From positions 2,472 through 66,471 of the forward strand of contig JBBRDN010000001.1 in assembly GCA_038203875.1 (NCBI GenBank): a stretch of 64,000 bases of DNA. Reading direction: 5' to 3'. This DNA is from Verrucomicrobiota bacterium. Its GTDB lineage: Bacteria > Verrucomicrobiota > Verrucomicrobiia > Limisphaerales > CANJSG01. The notes below the pieces were generated by a model. The model saw only the letters and a program-made list of their open reading frames with translations. It did no database searches and was not told the origin of the DNA. The translations under genes and the position numbers were made by a program. Below are positions 1,381 to 55,094 of this stretch, piece by piece. How positions within the stretch are numbered: the stretch's first letter is position 1; each line of letters starts with the position of its first letter.

Positions 1381-2661
1381 ATGGCACTGCAAGATCTAAC
1401 TCCTCAGCTCCGAACGCGGCTCGGCAAGGTCGAGCGCCTGGTCGGCGTCTTCGTCACTGTGGCGACGCTGCTGCTCGTCGTCGGGTTCGGCTACTACGTC
1501 CGCCACATGGCGAAGAAGAAGGGGTGGTTCGACGCCAAGGTGGAATACAGCACCGGCGTCAACAACGCGGCCGGGTTGGCCGTTGGTTCCAAGGTGAAGT
1601 TGATGGGATTTGATGCCGGAGAAATCACCGCCATCGTTCCGAACGAACCTTCCTCCACGATCGGTGTGACCGTTTTCTTCAACGTGCGCGAGCCGAACTT
1701 CGGCTACATCTGGACCGACTCGAAGGTGAAGGTCGTGTCCGGCGACCTCCTCGGCGGCCGTGTTCTGGAAGTCACGAAGGGAGCCGAATACTGGGCCCTG
1801 GCCACCGTGTCGCAGAAGGCCGGAGGGGAAATCCTGGTGCTGGACCACAAGCTCCTGAATGCGGGTTACAGGGAGATCACCAACCGGCTGGTCGAGGCCG
1901 AGGCGCTCAAGACGGGCCGGACGGTGGATGCGTTCCGCGTCGGGGTCCTCGCGCAGAAGGGGCTCTACGATCTCCAGGACACCGTTAAGTCGAACGCCCC
2001 GCAGTTCTACGTCCGCCGGCAACCCGGCAAGGCCTACTGGATCGACGCCCAGGAATCCCGTCCCATCGGCGAACGCCTCGAACAGATCGGCGACATCGTC
2101 GAAGCCGCATTGCCGTCGTTCCTCGCCCTGACCAACCAGCTCAAGACCATCCTCGCCAGCGCCGCCTCCGCCACCGAGAAGCTTGACGCCATGCTGTCCG
2201 ACGCCCGTCCCGCCGTGACCAATCTTGCCGCGTCGACGACCAATCTCGCCCAGATCCTCGCCAACGCCGCTTTCATCACCGCCAACCTGACCAACGGCCA
2301 GGGTTCGCTCGGTGAATGGCTCATCACGACCAACATCAACGGCCAGCTCGACCGCACGTTCGGATCGGCCAACGCCGCCATCGGCTCTGCGAACGACGTC
2401 CTCATGACGGCGAACACGAACCTCCAGACGTTGAACCGTTCGCTGGAAGGAATTGCCGGCATCACTTCGAACCTCAACGTCCAGGTTCAGGCCAACTCGA
2501 ACATGCTCTCCTCGATCACCCAGATCGTGACCAACAGCGACAACTTCATCCTCGGCCTCCAGCGCCATTGGTTGCTGCGTTCCGCATTCAAGCCCATCGC
2601 GACGAACAAACCGCCCAAGAAGAGCACCTCGCCGCCCGGCCCCATCCGTGTGCGGCCGTGA
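1381..2661 (+). CDS. MCE/MlaD-family substrate-binding protein with long helical C-terminal extension
   Basis: Starts at MALQDLTPQLRTRLGKVERLVGVF. It has an N-terminal TM helix, then an MCE-type segment (GLAVGSKVKLMGFDAGEITAIVP) and an N/T/L-rich helical tail. The upstream part of ORF 1135..2661 overlaps the NBD gene and looks non-coding. Confidence 0.8.
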   Translation: MALQDLTPQLRTRLGKVERLVGVFVTVATLLLVVGFGYYVRHMAKKKGWFDAKVEYSTGVNNAAGLAVGSKVKLMGFDAGEITAIVPNEPSSTIGVTVFFNVREPNFGYIWTDSKVKVVSGDLLGGRVLEVTKGAEYWALATVSQKAGGEILVLDHKLLNAGYREITNRLVEAEALKTGRTVDAFRVGVLAQKGLYDLQDTVKSNAPQFYVRRQPGKAYWIDAQESRPIGERLEQIGDIVEAALPSFLALTNQLKTILASAASATEKLDAMLSDARPAVTNLAASTTNLAQILANAAFITANLTNGQGSLGEWLITTNINGQLDRTFGSANAAIGSANDVLMTANTNLQTLNRSLEGIAGITSNLNVQVQANSNMLSSITQIVTNSDNFILGLQRHWLLRSAFKPIATNKPPKKSTSPPGPIRVRP

Positions 2662-2674
2662 GGGAGGTTTCAAT

Positions 2675-2802
2675 TCACTGGTGCACGAAGATGATCCGGC
2701 TGCCGGCGGACTCGAACCGGAAGTCGACTTTCCGGAGATCCTTCAACGCCCGGGTGATCGCCTCGTGCCGGTCCGGCGCCGCGTAGAACATTATGAAGCC
2801 GC
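2675..2802 (-). pseudogene. Orphan 3'-terminal fragment of a GHMP kinase gene (duplicate of 3809..3936)
   Basis: The minus strand reads ...FIMFYAAPDRHEAITRALKDLRKVDFRFESAGSRIIFVHQ-TGA. This is about 95% nt-identical to the 3' end of the intact gene at 3809..4792. No upstream coding continuation exists. Confidence 0.8.
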
Positions 2803-3810
2803 TGACTGAGCCTGCTAAAAGCATGGCGGCGAGACAGCGTCGGTGAAGCCGGTCAAAAAGCGGCCACGCTCGGAAGGAGTCATGTTGGGGCTAAAACAGC
2901 CGGCAGCGGGCGCTTTGCAAAGCACGCTGACAAACCGACCGAACCAGAGTCAAAGCGGTGCCAAGTCCCTAGCGGAAATAGTCGGGGATGTCCGATCCGC
3001 CAAAGACAACGTAAGCGGCTCCGTTTGAGAGAATCTGGAGATGCACCCGGACCCGTGCCGACGAAGGCGCAGTCGATGGAAGCTGGCACGGCTCCGGCGA
3101 TCTAGGGTTGGCGGCCAGCAGTGACTCGCCAATCGTTCCGGAAACCGCCACCGGCAGAAATGACATGGTTTGGGAAAAACGCTCTTCGGAATCGGCCACT
3201 GCTCCGCGCGACAGCTGTAGTTCAACATCGTAGCCATTGGCCCAGCGGTTGGTGGATTCGAGATAGCGGCGTTGGTTGGCGGAGAACGAAACGATATGGG
3301 GAAAGTTTGTGAGCAAACGCATGACCTTTTCATTTCGCAGGAAGCGGCCCAGATCCGTCGTCGCAGAGAAAGCAGGCTCTGCCAACGCCTCGGGGTAGGA
3401 CTTCGCCGCGATTACCGTTTTCAGTTGGCCTAAGGAGAAGTTGGTGGTCGTGCGGCCAGTTTCTGACAAAAGGCGAATGTTACTTGCGCGGATCAGGGCA
3501 TCTCGAAGCAACAATTGGGTTGCCCGTGCATGCTCTTGGGGTGCGACATCGACATCGTAGAGTAGGGAGCCCTCCATCCCGCAATGGATCGAGTTGGAAG
3601 CCATCAAAGAGTAGATGTGTCGAGACGTGATCTTGTCCATGCCACCGATAGAGGCCACTAAAACCCTTTCATCGCGCCATGATGGTTGCTTGGCTGCGTG
3701 CAGGCGGTCGAGATAGTGGAGACTTGACCAGACAACTAGCTGCAACGCCAAGCGAACCATCCGTTGCTTAAAAGTGGATAAGGGCTGGGTTGTCATGAAC
3801 TGGCGTGATT
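2803..3810 (-). mobile_element. ~1 kb accessory insert bounded by 126-bp direct repeats (2677..2802 and 3811..3936)
   Basis: Visibly AT-richer than its flanks. It is bracketed by two copies of the GHMP kinase 3' end. No recombinase or transposase is present. Confidence 0.4.
2969..3796 (-). CDS. Hypothetical protein (cargo of the insert)
   Basis: 275-aa ORF starting 12 nt after the GHMP kinase stop and co-oriented with it. AT-richer codon usage. No motif recognised. The C-terminal ~50 aa may be non-coding read-through. Confidence 0.45.
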   Translation of the reverse strand: MTTQPLSTFKQRMVRLALQLVVWSSLHYLDRLHAAKQPSWRDERVLVASIGGMDKITSRHIYSLMASNSIHCGMEGSLLYDVDVAPQEHARATQLLLRDALIRASNIRLLSETGRTTTNFSLGQLKTVIAAKSYPEALAEPAFSATTDLGRFLRNEKVMRLLTNFPHIVSFSANQRRYLESTNRWANGYDVELQLSRGAVADSEERFSQTMSFLPVAVSGTIGESLLAANPRSPEPCQLPSTAPSSARVRVHLQILSNGAAYVVFGGSDIPDYFR

Positions 3811-4792
3811 ACTGGTGGACGAAGATGATCCGGCTGCCGCTGGACTCGAAGCGGAAGTCGACTTTCCGGAGATCCTTCAACGCCCGGGTGATCGCCTCGT
3901 GCCGGTCCGGCGGCGCGTAGAACATCATGAAGCCGCCGCTGCCCGCGCCGAGCAGCTTGCCGCCGGTCGCACCCGACTTGCGCGCGGCCGCATACCACGC
4001 GTCGATGCGGTCGTTGCTGATCTGCGCGGCCAGGCTGCGCTTGAGTTCCCAGTTCTCGTGGATGATCTCGCCGAAGGCGTCGAGGTTGTTCCGTTCGAGC
4101 TCGGACTTGAGGTTGAAGGCGAGGTCGACCATCCGGCGCATGGCGTCCTGTTTCTTCTTCTGCGAATCCACGGCGGACTGCTGGTTCTTCAACACCGAGG
4201 ACGCGCTGCGGGTCAGGCCCGTGTAGAAGACGAGGATGCGCTCCTGCAGTGCCGAGATCGTCGTGCGACGGCAGATGATCGGGTCGACGCTGACGGTGTC
4301 GTCGGGGTTGAAGCGGATGAAATTGAAGCCCCCGTAGGCCGCGGCGTATTGATCCTGCTTTCCGATGGGTTCGCGGCAACGCTCGATCTCGATCTCGCAG
4401 CATTCCCGCGCCAGCGTCTCGGCCGAGGCGTGCCGGCCCTGGAACGCGTGCAACGCGTGGAGCAGGCCGATGGTGAAGGTGCTGGAGGAACCAAGCCCGG
4501 TGCCCTTGGCCGGAATGTCGGCGACGCTGGTGATCTCGATCCCGCCCTTGGGCCCGGCCATCTTCATGGCTTCGCGGACGAGCGGATGTTTGATGCGTTC
4601 GATGCTTCCGGCCTCCTCCGTGCGGGAGTAGCTCACGCGGATGCGGTCGTCGAACTTCTGGTTCACCTGGATGTAGATGTAGCGGTCGATGGCGGTGGAA
4701 ACGACCGCGCCGCCGAACTTGCGGTAGAAGACCGGCAGGTCGCTCCCGCCACCGACGAAGCTCATCCGCAAAGGAGTCCGGCTGATGATCAT
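3809..4792 (-). CDS. GHMP-family sugar kinase (HddA/heptose-phosphate kinase-like)
   Basis: N-terminus RTPLRMSFVGGGSDLP; GHMP motif IPAKGTGLGSSSTF; C-terminal GAGSGGFMMFY. Confidence 0.85.
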   Translation of the reverse strand: MIISRTPLRMSFVGGGSDLPVFYRKFGGAVVSTAIDRYIYIQVNQKFDDRIRVSYSRTEEAGSIERIKHPLVREAMKMAGPKGGIEITSVADIPAKGTGLGSSSTFTIGLLHALHAFQGRHASAETLARECCEIEIERCREPIGKQDQYAAAYGGFNFIRFNPDDTVSVDPIICRRTTISALQERILVFYTGLTRSASSVLKNQQSAVDSQKKKQDAMRRMVDLAFNLKSELERNNLDAFGEIIHENWELKRSLAAQISNDRIDAWYAAARKSGATGGKLLGAGSGGFMMFYAPPDRHEAITRALKDLRKVDFRFESSGSRIIFVHQ

Positions 4793-4876
4793 GTGGCGGA
4801 AGGTTGAATATCCAGACGCGCGAAGGCGAGCGGAAGAACGCTGCTCCTGGCCCGGTTCGGCGAGGTCACGTCAGCA

Positions 4877-4993: not shown

Positions 4994-6238
4994 ATGGGCA
5001 AACTGTGCATTCTCCGGTTCCGCATCCTGTCGCTGGCTTTGCTGGCCGTCATCGGACTTTCCGCCGGCGCGTCGGAGCTGGTTACGACGCTCTCGACCGC
5101 GACCGAAGTCCTGACGAACGGTCAGAAGCTGACGATCTGGCTCAACATCCTCAATCCCGGCAACGCCACGGAGGATTTCGCCGTCCCGCCCAAGCTCCCC
5201 GCCACCGTCGTATCCGGCAGCCAGCGTGTGCCGTTCGACCTGACCCTGGCCGCCGATGCGAACGCGGACACCCGGCAGGTGGCGGCGGGTTCCTTTGTCC
5301 GGGTGCCGTATGTCTTCATCGTGCCGGTGCAGATCGAGGGACAGCTCCTCGTCATGATGACGAATCCGCCCCACAGTTCGATAAGCCTGACGGTGGTCGC
5401 GCCGAAGAGCCCGATGTTCGCGCCCCTGCCAAGGCCGGTCACCGCGGAGGAGAAGGCGGCGCCGGAGCAGCCGAGGATCCCCTTCGATGCGAACGACTAT
5501 TTCCGCCGGCACTTCTTCGGCTACGACCAGGTCTACTTCATAGCCGGCCCGGAAACGCCGACGGCCAAGTTCCAGTTCAGCCTCCGTTACCGGGTGCTCG
5601 ACGTGGACGACACCGGGCTCGGGTGGGTGGCTCAAAAGCTGTCCTACGCGACGAACATCTATCTCGCCTACACCCAGGTGTCGCTCTGGGACCTGCTCGC
5701 CCCTTCATCGCCCTTCCTCGACACCAGCTACAAGCCGGAGATCCACTACTGGTGGCGCAACGTCACCGGGCAGAAGGACGACTCCCATTGGTTCCACATG
5801 GACCTGCAGGCCGGCTACCAGCACGAGTCCAACGGCAAGGAACCGCCCGCTTCGCGCAGCGTCAACATGCTCTACCTCCAGCCCACGCTTTTCTTCGGCG
5901 ACCGCAACGCCTTCCACATGTCCCTCGGAGTGAGGGCGTGGGTCTATATCCTGGACCTGGTCGACAATCCCGACATCGCCGACTACCGGGGGCATTTCGA
6001 TGTCCGCGCGATGGTCGGCTGGCCGGACCATGTCCAGCTCTCGGTCCTCGGTAGGGCGGGGGACAGCTTCGACCACGGCAGCGCCATGCTGGACCTGAGC
6101 TACCCGCTCTTCGGCCGGTCGGGCCGCGGGCTCAGCATGTATCTGCACGCCCAGTATTTCGTCGGCTACGGGGAGACCCTCCTGGAATACAACCGCCGCT
6201 CGGACGCCATTCGCTTCGGGTTCTCCATCTACCGGTGA
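4994..6238 (+). CDS. pldA: Outer-membrane phospholipase A (OMPLA) with ~170-aa N-terminal extension
   Basis: Signal peptide MGKLCILRFRILSLALLAVIGLSAGA. OMPLA catalytic block YQHESNGKEPPASRSVNMLY (His-x-Ser-Asn-Gly plus downstream Asn). C-terminal FVGYGETLLEYNRRSDAIRFGFSIYR. Confidence 0.85.
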   Translation: MGKLCILRFRILSLALLAVIGLSAGASELVTTLSTATEVLTNGQKLTIWLNILNPGNATEDFAVPPKLPATVVSGSQRVPFDLTLAADANADTRQVAAGSFVRVPYVFIVPVQIEGQLLVMMTNPPHSSISLTVVAPKSPMFAPLPRPVTAEEKAAPEQPRIPFDANDYFRRHFFGYDQVYFIAGPETPTAKFQFSLRYRVLDVDDTGLGWVAQKLSYATNIYLAYTQVSLWDLLAPSSPFLDTSYKPEIHYWWRNVTGQKDDSHWFHMDLQAGYQHESNGKEPPASRSVNMLYLQPTLFFGDRNAFHMSLGVRAWVYILDLVDNPDIADYRGHFDVRAMVGWPDHVQLSVLGRAGDSFDHGSAMLDLSYPLFGRSGRGLSMYLHAQYFVGYGETLLEYNRRSDAIRFGFSIYR

Positions 6239-6732: not shown

Positions 6733-6920
6733 GGAGCGCGGCCTGCCTTGCTGCGCTTCGTTTCGTAGGCCAGGCGTCCCCGCCCGGTCAGTGAGTGCTG
6801 TGACCGGGAAGAACAGCGACGAATGCCGGATCGGATCTCGCTGAGGCCCTGATTCCGCTTTGCGCCGAGTTTGCGCTCGCCGTGGCGTGCGGTGTGGAGG
6901 ACAAGGCTGCTGTCACCCGC

Positions 6921-8339
6921 ATGAAGCCACGCACGCTTGCCCAGCTTACCTTCGTCGTTTCGTTGATCGTCCTGTGCGGCTTCGCTGACGCCGCCGACCG
7001 GAAACCCAACATCGTCGTCGTGCTGGCCGACCAATGGCGTCCGCAGGCCTTCGGCTTCGCCGGTGATCCGAATGTCCGCACGCCGCGCTTCGACCGGCTC
7101 GCGGGTGAAAGCGTCCGTTTCGTCAACGCCGTCAGTGGCATGCCCGTCTGTTCGCCTTGCCGCGCGTCCTTGATGACCGGCCAGCGCCCGCTGACCCACG
7201 GCGTCTTCGTCAACGACGTCCAACTGAACACCAACGCCGTCACTATCGCCAAGGTCCTCCGGTCGTCCGGCTACGACACCGCCATGATCGGCAAGTGGCA
7301 CATCGACGGCAGAGGCCGCTCCAACTACATCCCGCCCGAACGCCGGCAGGGCTTCGACTATTGGAAGGTCCTTGAATGCACCCACGCCTACTCCAACTCG
7401 TTCTACTACGCCGATGGGCCGGAGAAGCTGAAGTGGCCCGGCTACGATACGTTCGCGCAGACCAGGGACGCCTGCGACTTCGTAAAAGCCCGCGCCAAGA
7501 CCGGCAAACCCTTCGTCCTCTTCCTCGCCTGGGGACCGCCGCACGATCCCTACTTCACCGCCCCGGCCAAGTATCGTGCGCTCTACGATCCCGCCACGCT
7601 CAAGCTCCGGCCGAACGTCCCCGCCGCGCTCGAAGCCGAGACGCGCAAGATCCTCGCCGGCTACTACGCCCACTGCACCGCACTCGACGACGCCATGGGC
7701 GAACTCCTCGACACCCTCAAGGAATCCGGTGCGGCCGACGACACCGTCTTCCTCTTCAGCGCCGACCACGGCGACATGCTCGGCTCGCAGGGCCAGTTCA
7801 AGAAACAGCGCCCCTTCGATGAAGCCGTGCGTGTGCCCATGCTCGTCCGCTGGCCCAAGGGGCTCGGGACCAGGCCGCGTTCGTTGGAGGCGCCGATCAA
7901 CTCCGAGGACATCATGCCCACCCTTCTCGGACTCGCCGGAGTGCCCATCCCCAAGTCCGTCGAAGGCCTCGACTACAGCGGCCATCTGCGCGGCGGCAAG
8001 AATCCCGGCGACAACGCCACCGTCATCCTCTGCGCTTCGCCCTTCGGCGAATGGGAACGTCGTGTGGGCGGCCGCGAATACCGCGGCGTCCGCACCGACC
8101 GCTTCACCTACGTCCGTGACCTGAAAGGCCCGTGGCTCCTCTACGACAATTCGACCGATCCGTATCAGACAAACAACCTCGTTGGCGTCGCGTCGCAAGC
8201 TGAACTCCAGGTGACCTTGGACGCGCTTCTGACACGCAAGCTGAAGGAACGTGGCGACGAATTCCGCCCCGGCCCCGACTACATCCGCCAATGGGGCTAC
8301 ACCGTGAACGCCAACGGGACGGTGCCTTATGCGAACTAA
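6921..8339 (+). CDS. Sulfatase (Cys-type, formylglycine-dependent)
   Basis: Signal peptide MKPRTLAQLTFVVSLIVLCGFADA. Sulfatase signature CSPCRASLMTG (CxPxR). GKWH and FLFSADHGDMLG motifs. Confidence 0.9.
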   Translation: MKPRTLAQLTFVVSLIVLCGFADAADRKPNIVVVLADQWRPQAFGFAGDPNVRTPRFDRLAGESVRFVNAVSGMPVCSPCRASLMTGQRPLTHGVFVNDVQLNTNAVTIAKVLRSSGYDTAMIGKWHIDGRGRSNYIPPERRQGFDYWKVLECTHAYSNSFYYADGPEKLKWPGYDTFAQTRDACDFVKARAKTGKPFVLFLAWGPPHDPYFTAPAKYRALYDPATLKLRPNVPAALEAETRKILAGYYAHCTALDDAMGELLDTLKESGAADDTVFLFSADHGDMLGSQGQFKKQRPFDEAVRVPMLVRWPKGLGTRPRSLEAPINSEDIMPTLLGLAGVPIPKSVEGLDYSGHLRGGKNPGDNATVILCASPFGEWERRVGGREYRGVRTDRFTYVRDLKGPWLLYDNSTDPYQTNNLVGVASQAELQVTLDALLTRKLKERGDEFRPGPDYIRQWGYTVNANGTVPYAN

Positions 8340-8360
8340 TGCCGAGTTCCTGAGCCCGTG

Positions 8361-8385
8361 GTAGGGCAGGCATCTTGCCTGTGCC
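8361..8385. repeat. REP-like GC-rich hairpin (GTAGGGCAGGC-N5-GCCTG family)
   Basis: GTAGGGCAGGCATCTTGCCTGTGCC is self-complementary. Related arms occur at 36294, 36397 and 9943. Confidence 0.4.
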
Positions 8386-8474
8386 GCCCGCCGAGGGCAC
8401 TCGCATGGACGAGCCTTCCGACCGCGCGATTTTTGGCTGCCATTCCCGCGGATGGACGAATAGGAATTGAGCGC

Positions 8475-9431
8475 ATGAGTATTCCCTCCCTCCGATCCTC
8501 AGGCCGATGGACCGGCCTTTTCGTTTCCATGGTTGTCGGTCTCATGTTCGGTTTTGCCGGATCTGCAGCCGCGCAGTTGGTCTTTGAGGAATCGTTCACC
8601 TACCCGGACGGCAAGATCGTGGGCGCTCCCGGATCGCCGTGGATCACAAACTACGCGCCGACCAACGAGGCCAGCGTGGTCTCGCGAGCCCTCTACCTGA
8701 CGCAGACTAACCAGGAGAGCATCCGCCGTGACTTTCCCGCAGTGGTCAACTCCGGTGCGCTCTACTCGCGCATGGTGGTCAACTTCTCGGAGTTGCCTCA
8801 AGGCCAGGGAAACTATTCCGCGTTCTTCAGGGTGAGCGGCACGGACAATCTCCGCTGTCGGATCTGGGCCACGACCAACGGCGCGGCCGCCGGCAGGTTC
8901 CGGCTCGGCATTACGACCATCTTCGTCCCGCCCACGATCGTGGAGAGGGATCTGTTCCTCGGCACGAACTACGTCGTGGTCTCGCGCTACGACGTCGCGA
9001 CCTGCCGATCCACCCTTTGGCTCGAGCCGACCGACGAAGGCAACTCCGCAAACCGGGTGGACGACTTCACCAACGTCGGCGCGAGTTCCATTGGGCACTT
9101 CGGTTTCCTCCAAACTGCCTTCTACCAGGCGGGCGCCGGCAACTACATCGGCGCGCTCACCGTGGACGACCTGCGAGTGGGCCGGACGTTCGAGGAGGTG
9201 ATGCAGACGGTGAAGTTCACCTCGGTCACCAACGCCTCCAACGGCACGATAGGCTTCAAGGCCAGCGGTCAGGCCACGACGAACTACACGCTCCAGGCCT
9301 CCACCGACCTTTTCACGACGGACTGGGTGAGCCTCGCGACGAACGCCGCAGGAGCGAACGGCCTCTTCAACCTCTCCGACACTTCGGCCACCAACCATCC
9401 CGCCCGGTTCTACCGCCTGATCAAGCAGTGA
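8475..9431 (+). CDS. Secreted protein of unknown function with C-terminal Ig-like/sorting-type domain
   Basis: Signal peptide MSIPSLRSSGRWTGLFVSMVVGLMFGFAGSAAAQ. The C-terminal ~90 aa are beta-rich and end in ARFYRLIKQ. Confidence 0.65.
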   Translation: MSIPSLRSSGRWTGLFVSMVVGLMFGFAGSAAAQLVFEESFTYPDGKIVGAPGSPWITNYAPTNEASVVSRALYLTQTNQESIRRDFPAVVNSGALYSRMVVNFSELPQGQGNYSAFFRVSGTDNLRCRIWATTNGAAAGRFRLGITTIFVPPTIVERDLFLGTNYVVVSRYDVATCRSTLWLEPTDEGNSANRVDDFTNVGASSIGHFGFLQTAFYQAGAGNYIGALTVDDLRVGRTFEEVMQTVKFTSVTNASNGTIGFKASGQATTNYTLQASTDLFTTDWVSLATNAAGANGLFNLSDTSATNHPARFYRLIKQ

Positions 9432-9643
9432 GCCGGGAGCCGAGTTGGCTTGCGCCGGTCGCCTTGTGCCCCGCGTCGCCGGCGGTGAAGAGATTCGCCG
9501 GGTCCATGGTGACTTCGGATCCGGTGGACCGATCTCGTCCACCAGCCTTCCCGCCTTCAACGCCGAGTCGACCACTTGGCTGACCTCAGGTTGCTCTCCG
9601 GGGACCTCTTCCGGCTGACGCGCGATGGCCGCGCCCCTAACCT

Positions 9644-9747
9644 GCAAGCTGAAGGAACGCGGCGACGAATTCCGGCCCGGCCCCGACTACATCCGCCAAT
9701 GGGGCTACACCGTGAACGCCAACGGGACGGTGCCGTATGCGAACTGA
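9644..9747 (+). pseudogene. Orphan 3'-terminal fragment of the sulfatase gene (duplicate of 8236..8339)
   Basis: Four mismatches over 106 nt against the intact copy, including stop TAA->TGA. It encodes ...KLKERGDEFRPGPDYIRQWGYTVNANGTVPYAN but has no upstream coding continuation. Confidence 0.8.
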
Positions 9748-9975
9748 TGATCCGGTGGTGCCGTGTCGTTTGGGGACCTGCTTTTGTTTCGGGTGGCGCA
9801 GGCCTCCGGCCTGTTCATTCCGGCGTCCTCGCCGGAAAGCGTTGAGCGTGTCACCTAGCTCCGCGAGGCTGGCGCCTCGGCTTTATGAACGCTCTGGTTT
9901 CAAGCGGATGCTTCAAACTGTTCCCGGCGCGACGCCCGGAACGGCAGGCGTGACGCCTGCGCCACCCACCAACCA

Positions 9976-19416: not shown

Positions 19417-19509
19417 GTGTAACGGCCCAAGCTCAGCGACGGCGGCCACGAGTCGCGCCGCTTGCAACCCGGACGGGACGCCGCCATTCGCTCCAGCGCA
19501 TCGCTAGGT
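19417..19509 (-). repeat. attC-like site A (degenerate cores)
   Basis: The plus strand reads GTGTAAC...GCTAGGT. The arms pair imperfectly (GCTCAGCGACGGCGGCC / GGACGCCGCCATTCGCTCCAGC). It begins 5 nt after the cupin stop codon. Same length as site B, and it shares the blocks CCAAGCTCAGCGA, TTGCAACC and CAGCGCAT. Confidence 0.5.
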
Positions 19510-19514
19510 CTTGT

Positions 19515-19874
19515 TCACTTTGATTTGGCGTAGTCGATCATGCCTTGGAAATCGATGACCACAGCCGCTTCATCTCCAACCGTCCAAGCGTCGTGCCCTG
19601 AGGGCAGAAGCGACACATCGCCGGGTTTGCAGTCGAACCCTGTGCCATCATCCATCTGGATGTGGAGTATGCCCGAGACGTGATACTGGAAATGAGGTGC
19701 CTCACAACTCTTGGTCTTGGCGAGAGGCTGGAGAGATTCAGCCCATCTCCAACCTGGTTCAAATATACACCGTCCGATCGTCGCGCCGCCGATCGTGATG
19801 ATCTCTAGTCGGCCTTTCGGGAACTCGCGAATTTCGTCAGGAGCTCCGAAATGTTTTAGTTCTGCTGTGTCCAT
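19515..19874 (-). CDS. Cupin-domain protein (cassette ORF)
   Basis: 119 aa with a beta-rich cupin-like core (HFQYHVSGILHIQMDDGT...PGDVSLLPSGHDAW). AT-richer than the genome background. Confidence 0.75.
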   Translation of the reverse strand: MDTAELKHFGAPDEIREFPKGRLEIITIGGATIGRCIFEPGWRWAESLQPLAKTKSCEAPHFQYHVSGILHIQMDDGTGFDCKPGDVSLLPSGHDAWTVGDEAAVVIDFQGMIDYAKSK

Positions 19875-19930
19875 AATGATTGAGGTGCTATTGGAGTTTT
19901 GTTTTGCGGTTGAGAGAAAAAGTGGAAGAC

Positions 19931-20023
19931 GCCTAACGATCCAAGCTCAGCGAGCCGGCGCACGGGACGCGTGGATTGCAACCGGAGCGCGATGGCCGGG
20001 TCCGCTTCAGCGCATGGTTAGGT
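19931..20023 (-). repeat. attC-like site B
   Basis: The plus strand reads GCCTAAC...GTTAGGT, which is ACCTAAC...GTTAGGC on the ORF-sense strand. Both ends fit RYYYAAC / GTTRRRY. The imperfect inverted arms carry single-base bulges. It lies 13 nt after the stop of the Zn-ribbon ORF. Confidence 0.6.
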
Positions 20024-20036
20024 GCCATCGTATGTA

Positions 20037-20267
20037 TCACGGAATGTTGATCGGAATGATGGTGGAAGGCTGATCAATCGGGGTCGCCTCCTGGGCGAGT
20101 TGGCTCTGTTTCCGGCTCGCCTCCAACTCTGCCGTCTTCTTTTCGAGTGCGTCAGTCTCCGCGCCCGTGAAACGAAGCTCCTCAGGAATGAGCGCTCCGC
20201 AAAACCCGCACTTCGGCAACCTCCGGGTGTAGAGGGCTCGCTGGCAGTTTGGGCAGTGATGTTTCAT
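20037..20267 (-). CDS. Small zinc-ribbon protein (cassette ORF)
   Basis: 76 aa with CPNC...CGFC, followed by a coiled-coil-like tail. AT-richer composition. Confidence 0.55.
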   Translation of the reverse strand: MKHHCPNCQRALYTRRLPKCGFCGALIPEELRFTGAETDALEKKTAELEASRKQSQLAQEATPIDQPSTIIPINIP

Positions 20268-52484: not shown

Positions 52485-53489
52485 ATGCCGTTCCTCGTCC
52501 TCCCCAATCAGTTTGAACGACGCGCCGAGCTGTTTCATCAGCTCGGCGCTTTGCTTTCAGCCGGTCTTCCGGCGATCCAGGCGCTCGAACACCTCGCGAA
52601 GAATCCACCGGCAAGGGCCTTTCGACGGCCATTGCTCCGGGTCCTCGAACGGATCGCGCAGGGCGACACGTTCAGCGGTGCTCTTCGAGGCGCGGATACC
52701 TGGCTGACGGTCTTCGACCTCTCCCTGATCGAAGCGGCGGAGCAGAGCGGGAGGATGGATTCCACCTTCAAGATGCTGGCGGGCTACTACCGGGACCGGG
52801 CGACGCTCGCCCGCAAGATCATCTCCGGCTTGTCCTACCCGATCCTGGTGCTTGCGTTCGCCCTGTTGATCTTTCCCCTAAATCTGTTCCAAGGATTGTT
52901 CCTTCACGGCAAGGTTCTGCCTTTTGTCCTCAATAAAGCGTTGTTCTTCGGCCTCATCCTCGGGGTTCCGATCCTGATCATGAGCCTGCTTCAGCAGAAG
53001 ACCGCGGAACGGTTCCGGAGCGTGATCGAGTCCTTCTGCCGGCCGATTCCGATCCTCGGCGGCACGATGCGCGACCTCGCGCTGACCCGTTTCACCGCCG
53101 CCTTGGGCGCTCTCCTGAGTGCCGGAGTTCCCGTGCTAGGCGCGTGGGAAATCGCGTCGCGGGCCAGCGGATCCCCAAGACTCATCCGGACCATCGCCGG
53201 ATTTTCCGAAGGCTTTGAGCTTGGGAAAACGCCTTCTGAGCTCGTGACGGAATCCGGTGAGTTCCCCGACCTGTTCTGCAATCTCTACGCGTCCGCCGAG
53301 ATCAGCGGACAGCATGACCAAACCCTCGAACGCCTCCACGCCTACTACAACGGCGAGAGCATCCGGAAGCTGTCCATGCTCGCCGAATGGACGCCGAGGG
53401 TGGTCTATATCGCCATCGTCATCTACGTCGCGTTCCAGATCATCAACTTCTACACCGGCTACTTCAGCAACATCGGCAGCCTCTCCTAG
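52485..53489 (+). CDS. Type II secretion/type IV pilus platform protein F family (compact, two T2SSF repeats)
   Basis: Repeats LIEAAEQSGRMDSTFKMLAGYY and LYASAEISGQHDQTLERLHAYY, each followed by TM helices. Confidence 0.75.
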   Translation: MPFLVLPNQFERRAELFHQLGALLSAGLPAIQALEHLAKNPPARAFRRPLLRVLERIAQGDTFSGALRGADTWLTVFDLSLIEAAEQSGRMDSTFKMLAGYYRDRATLARKIISGLSYPILVLAFALLIFPLNLFQGLFLHGKVLPFVLNKALFFGLILGVPILIMSLLQQKTAERFRSVIESFCRPIPILGGTMRDLALTRFTAALGALLSAGVPVLGAWEIASRASGSPRLIRTIAGFSEGFELGKTPSELVTESGEFPDLFCNLYASAEISGQHDQTLERLHAYYNGESIRKLSMLAEWTPRVVYIAIVIYVAFQIINFYTGYFSNIGSLS

Positions 53490-54224: not shown

Positions 54225-55094
54225 TTACTTGCCCTGCACGCCGCGCAGATAGGCCAGCACCAAGTCCGGCAGGTCGTCGCTGTAGCCGCCTTCCAGCACG
54301 CTGAAGAACTTTACGCCGCAGTCCCGCAGTCGCGCGCCGAGCCATTCGTAGTCTTCCGCCTCCAGCAGTTCCTGCGCGATCGGATCCCGGGCGTAGGCGT
54401 CGAAGCCCGCCGACACGCCGATGAGATCCGGCTTGAAGGCGAGCAACCGCTCAAGCGACTGCTTCAGGGCGCCGCGGTAGATCTCGCGGGGTGTGCGCGG
54501 CGGCAGGGGATAGTTGAAGCAGTTGTTTCCAACGTCCCTCAGCCCAGTGCCAGGATAACACGGCGACTGGTGGACGGACGCGAACGCTGCGTGCGGATGA
54601 CCGAGGAGAATCGCCTCGGTGCCGTTGCCATGGTGGACGTCGAAGTCGAAGACCGCGACCCGGTTGACGCCCATGGCCAGCGCGTCCAACGCCGCCACGG
54701 CGATGCCGTTGAAGTAGCAGAAACCCATCGCCCGGTCCCTCGTCGCGTGATGTCCCGGCGGCCGCAATAGGCTGAAGGCGGCCTTGCCCTGGCGCGCCAG
54801 TTGCATGGCCTTGATGGCGCCGCCGACGGAGCGGCGGGCGTGTTCGGTGATCTTGGGATGGTTGGGAGTGTCGGCGTCGAAGTCGCCCTTGGCCGTGTCC
54901 ACGTCGCGGATCAGAGCCGGCGAATGCGCCCGCAGCAGTTGATCGAGATCGACCTCTGCCGGCTTGTCCCAGGTGATGGCGACGTCGGTTTGAGCGCGAA
55001 GCCGTGCGAGCGTCCCGGCGATGCGCGCGGGTTTCTCGGGATGGCCGGGCGCGGAATACTCCACGCAGCGTTCATCGGTGATGACGATCATCAT
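54225..55094 (-). CDS. Histone deacetylase-family (acetylpolyamine/acetoin-utilisation type) amidohydrolase
   Basis: RPPGHHA, FDFDVHHGNGTE and SAGFDA motifs. Confidence 0.85.
   Translation of the reverse strand: MMIVITDERCVEYSAPGHPEKPARIAGTLARLRAQTDVAITWDKPAEVDLDQLLRAHSPALIRDVDTAKGDFDADTPNHPKITEHARRSVGGAIKAMQLARQGKAAFSLLRPPGHHATRDRAMGFCYFNGIAVAALDALAMGVNRVAVFDFDVHHGNGTEAILLGHPHAAFASVHQSPCYPGTGLRDVGNNCFNYPLPPRTPREIYRGALKQSLERLLAFKPDLIGVSAGFDAYARDPIAQELLEAEDYEWLGARLRDCGVKFFSVLEGGYSDDLPDLVLAYLRGVQGK

Follow-up and report, generated by a model that had tools for sequence, protein, structure and literature searches.

Duplicated gene ends around ~1-kb inserts in a Verrucomicrobiota genome: probable scars of gene gain by recombination between related genomes

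Introduction

Homology-facilitated illegitimate recombination (HFIR), described in Streptococcus pneumoniae, Acinetobacter baylyi and Pseudomonas stutzeri, is summarised in PMC3240628 as the combination of one homologous anchor with one illegitimate junction at 3-10-bp microhomology, with inserts of ~1 kb. In an Escherichia coli lacZ system, single crossover of re-circularised fragments produced 109-950-bp duplications of the homologous end (PMC3240628). At rhs, contact-dependent inhibition and type VI secretion system effector-immunity loci, C-termini are displaced (PMC2935791, PMC5361080), and a circular intermediate has been proposed for this process (PMC2935791). Here we analyse two inserts, bracketed by duplicated 3′ ends of a GHMP kinase gene and of a sulfatase gene, respectively, in a 64,000-nt stretch of DNA from a Verrucomicrobiota bacterium (assembly GCA_038203875.1, contig JBBRDN010000001.1, positions 2,472 to 66,471), hereafter the window.

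Comparison with related genomes indicates that both structures are very probably scars left by genes gained through recombination between relatives whose gene content differs beside the same conserved gene. The best explanation as a whole, which we regard as likely, combines a homologous anchor at one end with an illegitimate join at the other, in an HFIR-like or Campbell-like manner.

Results

Two gene ends are duplicated in the window

A repeat finder returned two long direct-repeat pairs, both within the first 12 kb and with no further such pair in the 64 kb. The first (2677-2802 and 3811-3936) is 126 nt long, with 120 of 126 positions identical, and consists in both copies of the last 41 GHMP kinase codons and the stop. 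The six mismatches in 126 nt that a sequence-only reading had noticed are confirmed, and blastn detects the pair with E = 1.6e-55. The second pair (8218-8341 and 9626-9749; 124 nt; blastn E = 6.7e-48) lies at the sulfatase 3′ end, where that reading had noted the same architecture. In both pairs homology ends at the stop codon, with one copy continuous with its gene (attached copy) and the other standing apart from it (orphan). When the last 200 nt of each of the 51 predicted genes were compared with the gene's own 4 kb downstream, the orphan-end pattern appeared at two genes only, the kinase and the sulfatase. The repeat observation is correct and far beyond chance.

Attached and orphan ends are 92-95% identical, the longest exact stretch common to two copies is ~60 nt (59-61 nt), and in both pairs the mismatches in the well-aligned core fall mostly at third codon positions. 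All three sense-codon differences in the core of the sulfatase pair are synonymous, whereas three of the five in the kinase pair change the amino acid and the other two are silent. Both orphans carry additional private substitutions in the 20-30 nt adjoining the junction.

Kinase locus and insert 1

The features of the kinase locus, including the first junction (J1), are as follows:

1381..2661, plus strand: MlaD/MCE-family gene (Pfam MlaD), collinear with L001, L002 and L004 and convergent on the kinase; recipient-type downstream flank
2675..2802, minus strand: orphan, displaced original kinase 3′ end (41 codons and TGA); TGA and spacer match the L001 empty site and the L004 orphan
2803..2820, minus strand: junction J1, ~17 nt of putative filler between the histidine-kinase fragment and the orphan; L047 collinearity ends at 2821 and the repeat starts at 2802
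2815..2883, minus strand: truncated 5′ end of a cNMP-binding histidine-kinase gene, matching the start of the L047 histidine kinase and brought in as part of the donor fragment
2884..2968, minus strand: donor-type intergenic spacer from cargo ORF to histidine kinase, inside the continuous blastn alignment to L047
2969..3796, minus strand: cargo open reading frame (ORF) 1, 275 aa; N-terminal helix followed by alpha/beta domains, low GC at third codon positions (GC3)
3809..4792, minus strand: intact GHMP (HddA-like) kinase (Pfam GHMP_kinases_N/C, NCBIfam HddA-like); 3811-3936 is the attached repeat copy

The attached kinase copy ends in TAA and the orphan in TGA (2675-2677). Thirteen nt separate the orphan stop from the convergent MlaD/MCE stop (2659-2661), and cargo ORF 1 starts 12 nt past the kinase stop. 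The segment between the repeats is indeed AT-richer, as had been claimed: GC content is 0.565 in insert 1 (2803-3810) and 0.64 in the flanks, and GC3 is 0.64 in cargo ORF 1 against 0.91 in the kinase.

Window 4841-2821 aligns as a single unbroken blastn segment to positions 38-2063 of L047 (2033 nt, 81.9%), a stretch that runs from the kinase through the cargo ORF and the spacer behind it to the 64th nt of the histidine-kinase gene. Together, the longer contigs L047 and L048 show a response regulator followed by a GHMP kinase that ends in TAA; 13 nt further on lies the cargo homolog and, after another 86 nt, a cNMP-binding histidine kinase and then MutL. The truncated stump in the window reads MTPSERGRFLTGFTDA and then runs into an out-of-context stop, where the L047 histidine kinase reads MTPSERGRFLSGLTDA; the orphan starts ~17 nt beyond this stump. 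We call the L047/L048 arrangement (kinase / 276-aa ORF / histidine kinase) A-type and that of L001, L002 and L004 B-type. Both outer flanks in the window are B-type: the MlaD operon on one side and PLA1 through sulfatase on the other. Because insert 1 is collinear with L047 into the histidine-kinase gene, it is best described as a fragment of the A-type chromosomal arrangement, cut ~21 codons into the next gene, and not as a one-gene element. That an A-type fragment entered a B-type genome is the parsimonious reading.

The location of the kinase also differs by genome type, between PLA1 and MlaD in the window and between the response regulator and cargo/histidine kinase/MutL in L047. Kinase homology between the window and L047/L048 (window 4792-4841 compared, also with L135) is limited to the span from 49 nt upstream of the start to the stop codon, and from this confinement the gene appears to have relocated as a tightly bounded module.

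Occupancy of the kinase site in related genomes

Kinase relatives with 94-96% amino-acid identity are present in four Verrucomicrobiota metagenome-assembled genomes (MAGs). One of them (L001) has the empty site that the sequence-only reading had proposed to look for, with the kinase directly convergent on MlaD: kinase, TGA, 14 nt, MlaD stop. Window 2160-2802, which covers the MlaD 3′ end and the orphan, is collinear with L001 5411-4769. The orphan's TGA, its downstream spacer and the MlaD stop are arranged as in this empty site, which upholds the proposal that the orphan marks the original gene end.

A second genome (L004) has the same kinase flanks around a different insert of ~2.2 kb, followed by its own orphan of ~100 nt that ends in TGA and has the spacer seen in L001; its attached kinase copy ends in TAA. 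In this independent MAG the attached and orphan copies are 15% divergent, and the repeat boundaries at the kinase differ from those in the window. The L004 insert (6985-9294) has a GC content of ~0.50 and carries two ORFs that match no family, one of 291 aa and a divergent coiled-coil one of 407 aa. L002 has a 148-aa zinc-ribbon/membrane ORF at the kinase site and no repeat, and L003 has yet another neighbour there. Five close genomes thus present five states of this site. Since relatives have this site either empty or filled with something else, the succession of gene, replacement end, cargo and displaced end is attributed to integration, as had been suggested.

The phenomenon is not restricted to the kinase and the sulfatase. 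In L135 we found its mirror image: an 83-nt orphan of an amidase 5′ end (5625-5707) with 88% identity to the intact gene (6824-6906). The pair brackets ~1.1 kb of small membrane ORFs, three of which are paralogous if one just upstream of the orphan is counted. Since this orphan derives from a 5′ end, the process is not tied to 3′ ends or stop codons, and any conserved gene bordering a variable spot is subject to it. The four cases in this clade bear out the idea of a recurrent process. The relatives that a kinase search of metagenomes recovered were at most 75% identical, and none of them had gene-end repeats. Other direct repeats in distant loci were rejected as cases (intragenic repeats, pilin N-termini or intergenic palindromes), and so were the 54-aa sulfatase-cluster members considered as orphans, which are unrelated proteins.

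Sulfatase locus and insert 2

The sulfatase locus and its junction (J2) comprise the following features:

6882..8339, plus strand: sulfatase (Pfam Sulfatase); 8216-8341 is the attached repeat copy, with donor-type alleles CCT and TAA
8475..9431, plus strand: cargo ORF 2, 318 aa, of a secreted verrucomicrobial protein family
9432..9632, minus strand: decayed internal remnant of an AP_endonuc_2 gene (xylose-isomerase-like TIM barrel), ~aa 182-275, with a frameshift and an internal deletion
9624..9632, plus strand: junction J2 microhomology GATGGCCGC, where the AP_endonuc_2 and sulfatase alignments overlap
9624..9749, plus strand: orphan, displaced original sulfatase 3′ end; stop TGA at 9745-9747; CGC, CCG and TGA as in the relatives' consensus

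The remnant fills the ~200 nt that separate cargo 2 from the sulfatase orphan. By blastn, window 9478-9632 is 77% identical to L133 6757-6912 and L136 2565-2720, and protein alignment places the remnant at ~aa 182-275. In L133/L134 and L136 an intact 328-aa AP_endonuc_2 gene is convergent on the sulfatase. At J2 the parental sequences are GATGTCCGC in AP_endonuc_2 and GATGGACGC in the sulfatase, each matched by the junction sequence at 8 of 9 positions, so that J2 has the features of a classic 9-nt microhomology junction.

Elsewhere the interval between sulfatase and amidase is occupied by small membrane ORFs (L135) or a 168-aa ORF (L004). Window 9783-9968 resembles the sequence upstream of the L135 amidase, a likeness which argues that the recipient had a short sulfatase-amidase interval. 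Missing from the remnant (9432-9477 and 9478-9632) are the last ~50 codons of the gene and the spacer that separates it from the sulfatase. From this loss it seems that cargo 2 first reached the donor lineage through an insertion-deletion that truncated AP_endonuc_2, which implies that events are layered. Just upstream of the amidase start there is an inverted repeat (9791-9827 / 9931-9967) with 37-nt arms, 76% complementary, and a 103-nt loop; its region is 73% conserved with L135 6189-6410.

The sequence-only reading had pictured a discrete one-ORF cargo, which is not supported: insert 1 also holds donor spacer and ~21 histidine-kinase codons, and insert 2 ends in the AP_endonuc_2 remnant. 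With spacer and stumps of neighbouring genes on board, the inserts are better regarded as arbitrary fragments of related chromosomes.

Alleles and stop codons

The A-type L047 kinase natively ends in TAA followed by TCA, the same as the attached copy in the window, and B-type empty sites end in TGA. At the sulfatase, the end reads CCG TAT GCG AAC TGA in five relatives (GTA for GCG in L004), which is the orphan form; the attached copy of the window alone has CCT ... TAA and an upstream CGT, absent from all relatives. These comparisons identify the attached extremities as donor-type and the orphans as the recipient's original ends, at the kinase because A-type kinases end in TAA-TCA and B-type empty sites in TGA. 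The TAA of the attached kinase end is, by the same comparison, a native A-type trait. Within the kinase repeat, the 5′ private alleles (ATA, GCG) are in the orphan and the 3′ odd alleles (GTC, TAA) in the attached copy.

Sulfatase substitutions private to the window cluster at gene positions 1230-1332, and the repeat starts at ~1296. The 1201-1300 bin holds 9 private sites against ~3.5 expected, with 1-3 in other genomes. Given that these substitutions start ~66 nt upstream, the donor tract in the sulfatase probably begins before the repeat.

Only 3 of the 51 window genes stop with TAA, and two of these are the genes with replaced ends; the chance that both would be among the TAA genes is 3/1275 (~0.002). 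TAA stops lie at 3809-3811, 8337-8339 and 54225-54227 in the window and at 6982-6984 in L004, at the occupied kinase; orphans and empty-site relatives stop with TGA, except for a single TAG. No orphan accompanies the remaining TAA gene of the window (54225-55094), which faces a convergent RsuA-like gene downstream.

Cargo proteins

Pfam, NCBIfam and PADLOC scans assigned no family to any cargo protein, in line with the remark that the 275-aa ORF has no recognisable motif. Among 5.8 billion proteins, a word index returned as homologs of cargo 1 only itself and P0002 (63% identity), the latter found in Logan contigs L047 to L049, 13 nt downstream of the GHMP kinase. Exact-protein look-ups of the kinase, cargo 1 and P0001 gave no match. 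Residues 45-200 of cargo 1 form a ~155-aa domain without a Pfam model, common to 93 cluster representatives and in some proteins fused to LRR repeats or to BlaR1-M56 and CarboxypepD_reg modules. The AlphaFold2 model of cargo 1 has a pLDDT of 84, and neither a profile search of Protein Data Bank (PDB) sequences nor a Foldseek PDB search gave a significant match. Cargo 2 has 52 homologs in varied genomic contexts; in those inspected (L050-L052, L137, L138) there is no sulfatase.

Search for recombination machinery

Pfam scans of the cargo ORFs and of every predicted gene, together with inspection by eye of ORFs in the gaps, revealed neither an integrase or transposase nor a reverse transcriptase or phage gene, whether in the inserts or in the rest of the 64-kb window, so the statement that no recombinase is present extends to the whole stretch. 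The window yielded no tRNA and no Rfam family, searches for toxin, immunity and defence families gave no match, and the repeat pairs and insert ends have no motif or att core in common. The one gene seen that is related to natural transformation is PilC/T2SS-F-like (52485-53489).

Integron cassettes were rejected, neither insert having an attC site (RYYYAAC...GTTRRRY hairpin). The only attC-like repeats of the window are at 19420-20023: two 90-nt direct repeats (19420-19509 and 19934-20023), 70% identical, each after a small minus-strand ORF (119-aa cupin-like, 19515-19874, and 76-aa zinc-ribbon, 20037-20267). On the minus strand, repeat 2 starts with ACCTAAC (RYYYAAC) and ends with GTTAGGC (GTTRRRY) in an imperfect end-to-end hairpin, and repeat 1 has one mismatch per attC box. 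By these features, 19420-20267 looks like a two-cassette cluster of attC-like sites. Folding energies of the 90-nt repeats were no better than those of shuffled controls, Rfam gave no match for them, and the window has no integron integrase.

Discussion

Proposed mechanism

The empty site, the donor arrangement, the truncated stumps of neighbouring genes, the J2 microhomology and the donor and recipient alleles are observed directly; how the DNA entered, and whether the intermediate was linear or circular, we infer. In the mechanism proposed, a piece of donor chromosome with the 3′ part of a conserved gene, one or more extra genes and the stump of the next gene would enter the cell. One of its ends would exchange by homologous recombination inside the conserved gene; the other, lacking a partner, would be joined illegitimately, at a short microhomology, to the recipient copy ~125 nt before its stop, a likely route being a template switch or priming on the second copy. 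The outcome would be an intact gene with a donor 3′ end, then the cargo, then the last ~125 nt of the recipient gene as an orphan with its native downstream sequence. We give this linear, one-ended route an even chance. The sulfatase data lean towards a linear intermediate, and the kinase allele pattern is compatible with a crossover inside the repeat.

Several points weigh against this explanation. Classical HFIR products, in the account of PMC3240628, delete recipient DNA rather than duplicate it. Neither the similar repeat lengths (126, ~124 and ~100 nt) nor the TAA stop at each of the three attached copies is predicted by a purely random process; the TAA excess, located exactly where homology ends at both genes, is left unaccounted for, and so is the ~17 nt of filler at J1. 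Statistical support for a donor tract that starts upstream of the sulfatase repeat is weak, with 9 private sites where ~3.5 are expected in a single 100-nt bin, and no donor of insert 2 or of the L004 cargo was found in the databases searched. That the repeats all measure ~100-126 nt may be a matter of survival bias: short overlaps would escape detection, junctions past the stop would damage the convergent neighbour, and long repeats would recombine out quickly.

Comparison with described systems

As in HFIR, there is a homologous anchor, seen in attached copies that run on from the gene without a break and have the donor's alleles, the insert is ~1 kb, no dedicated recombinase is involved and the illegitimate junction lies at a microhomology (9 nt at J2). 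The loci differ from HFIR in that adjacent recipient DNA is not deleted; instead, the anchor is present twice over ~100-126 nt, and the source of the "foreign" DNA is the chromosome of a close relative. The AP_endonuc_2 truncation may record an earlier insertion-deletion event.

The likeness to Campbell-type integration is that direct repeats of the homologous segment flank the insert; the differences are that donor alleles at the sulfatase appear, on weak statistics, to start upstream of the repeat, and that the circle is hypothetical here. Rhs-type displacement is similar in that an incoming 3′ end with a linked gene displaces the resident end, which is kept downstream as an orphan; events also recur in both, and homology in the conserved part limits the possible donors. 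Unlike at Rhs loci, the genes concerned are a sugar kinase and a sulfatase. Their resident and incoming ends specify nearly identical peptides, and toxin tips and immunity genes are absent, so that displacement here is a by-product and not protein diversification. Integrase islands at gene 3′ ends have the same order of gene, replacement end, cargo and displaced end, whereas the loci studied here lack a recombinase, a common att core and defined ends, the cargo ending in truncated chromosomal genes. What we describe is thus a natural example, at hot spots of variable gene content, of a known route of bacterial gene gain, and not a new mobile element.

Alternative explanations

A Campbell-type event is the alternative that survives best, as a possible route which we hold only tentatively. 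The donor fragment would have circularised at J1 or J2 and then undergone a single RecA crossover inside the ~125-nt homology, the repeat being all the homology on the circle. The architecture is exactly that of a single crossover, the duplications obtained in E. coli are of a comparable kind (109-950 bp; PMC3240628), the same model was put forward for Rhs tips (PMC2935791), and the kinase repeat alleles fit a crossover somewhere from position 24 to position 86 of the repeat. Against this route stand the lack of any observed circle and the attached sulfatase copy, which is donor-type across the repeat, with the private cluster beginning ~66 nt upstream, a result that a circle carrying the repeat alone cannot give. 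The circular-fragment crossover, one of the two routes offered in the sequence-only reading, stands as a possibility, but a minimal circle fails to predict the sulfatase substitutions upstream of the repeat.

It is improbable, though worth stating, that units of gene end and cargo are recombinase-free mobile cassettes in this Verrucomicrobiota clade. The ~100-126-nt repeats would let RecA excise circles that re-insert in any strain with the conserved gene, and the TAA stop would travel along as a marker of first capture. Four events were seen in ~140 kb of the clade against none in ~1.1 Mb of more distant loci, in a sample whose choice was biased; if the cassettes were real, the event rate in the clade would be unusually high.

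An assembly artefact, in which an empty site and a separate molecule or strain variant were misthreaded through the 59-61-nt exact stretch, is very unlikely. The sequence is probably a metagenome assembly, only ~60 nt are exactly shared between copies, and a path swap at that stretch would give an ordinary L002-like kinase allele. Against this, J1 and J2 must exist in real reads, both cargo proteins lie on a single 28-kb Joint Genome Institute (JGI) contig, and a 1.1-kb circle without a replication function is unlikely at chromosomal coverage. We take the architecture to be real because L004, an independent MAG, has it with copies 15% divergent, which are not confusable.

Site-specific integration of small elements (integrase-less satellites or decayed islands), with an attP that mimics the target 3′ end, is scarcely credible. 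Targeting of 3′ ends with a replacement end is typical of phages and of integrative and conjugative elements, AT content is higher in insert 1 and in the L004 cargo than around them, and the TAA stops could be borne by an element. Opposed to this are the lack of an integrase or transposase in the inserts and the 64 kb, targets that differ and have no common core, inserts that end in truncated chromosomal genes of a related locus, repeat boundaries at the kinase that differ between the window and L004, and the mirror-image case at the amidase 5′ end in L135. Site-specific recombination, offered at first as one of two possibilities, is abandoned on these grounds, the repeat pairs having no common att core and the inserts no element ends, and an integrase-mediated island is rejected with it.

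An ancient local segmental duplication or a diversity-generating retroelement with template and variable repeats is suggested by near-identical ~125-nt repeats at a gene 3′ end and ~1 kb downstream, and both can practically be dismissed: the empty site and the donor arrangement exist, the cargo is no copy of local sequence, the mismatches include C/G and other types instead of being adenine-specific, and a reverse transcriptase is absent.

Significance

Natural scars of gene acquisition by one-sided homology are seldom documented with the empty site, the donor arrangement and the junction together, and all three are identified here, in uncultured Verrucomicrobiota. The case would gain interest if mechanism, rather than selection or chance, lay behind the TAA bias and the tight spread of repeat lengths. 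For annotation, an orphan gene end ~1 kb from its parent is a signature of recent acquisition and reveals the original allele. For the biology of these bacteria, the loci show that small strain-specific genes accumulate beside conserved genes without mobile-element machinery.

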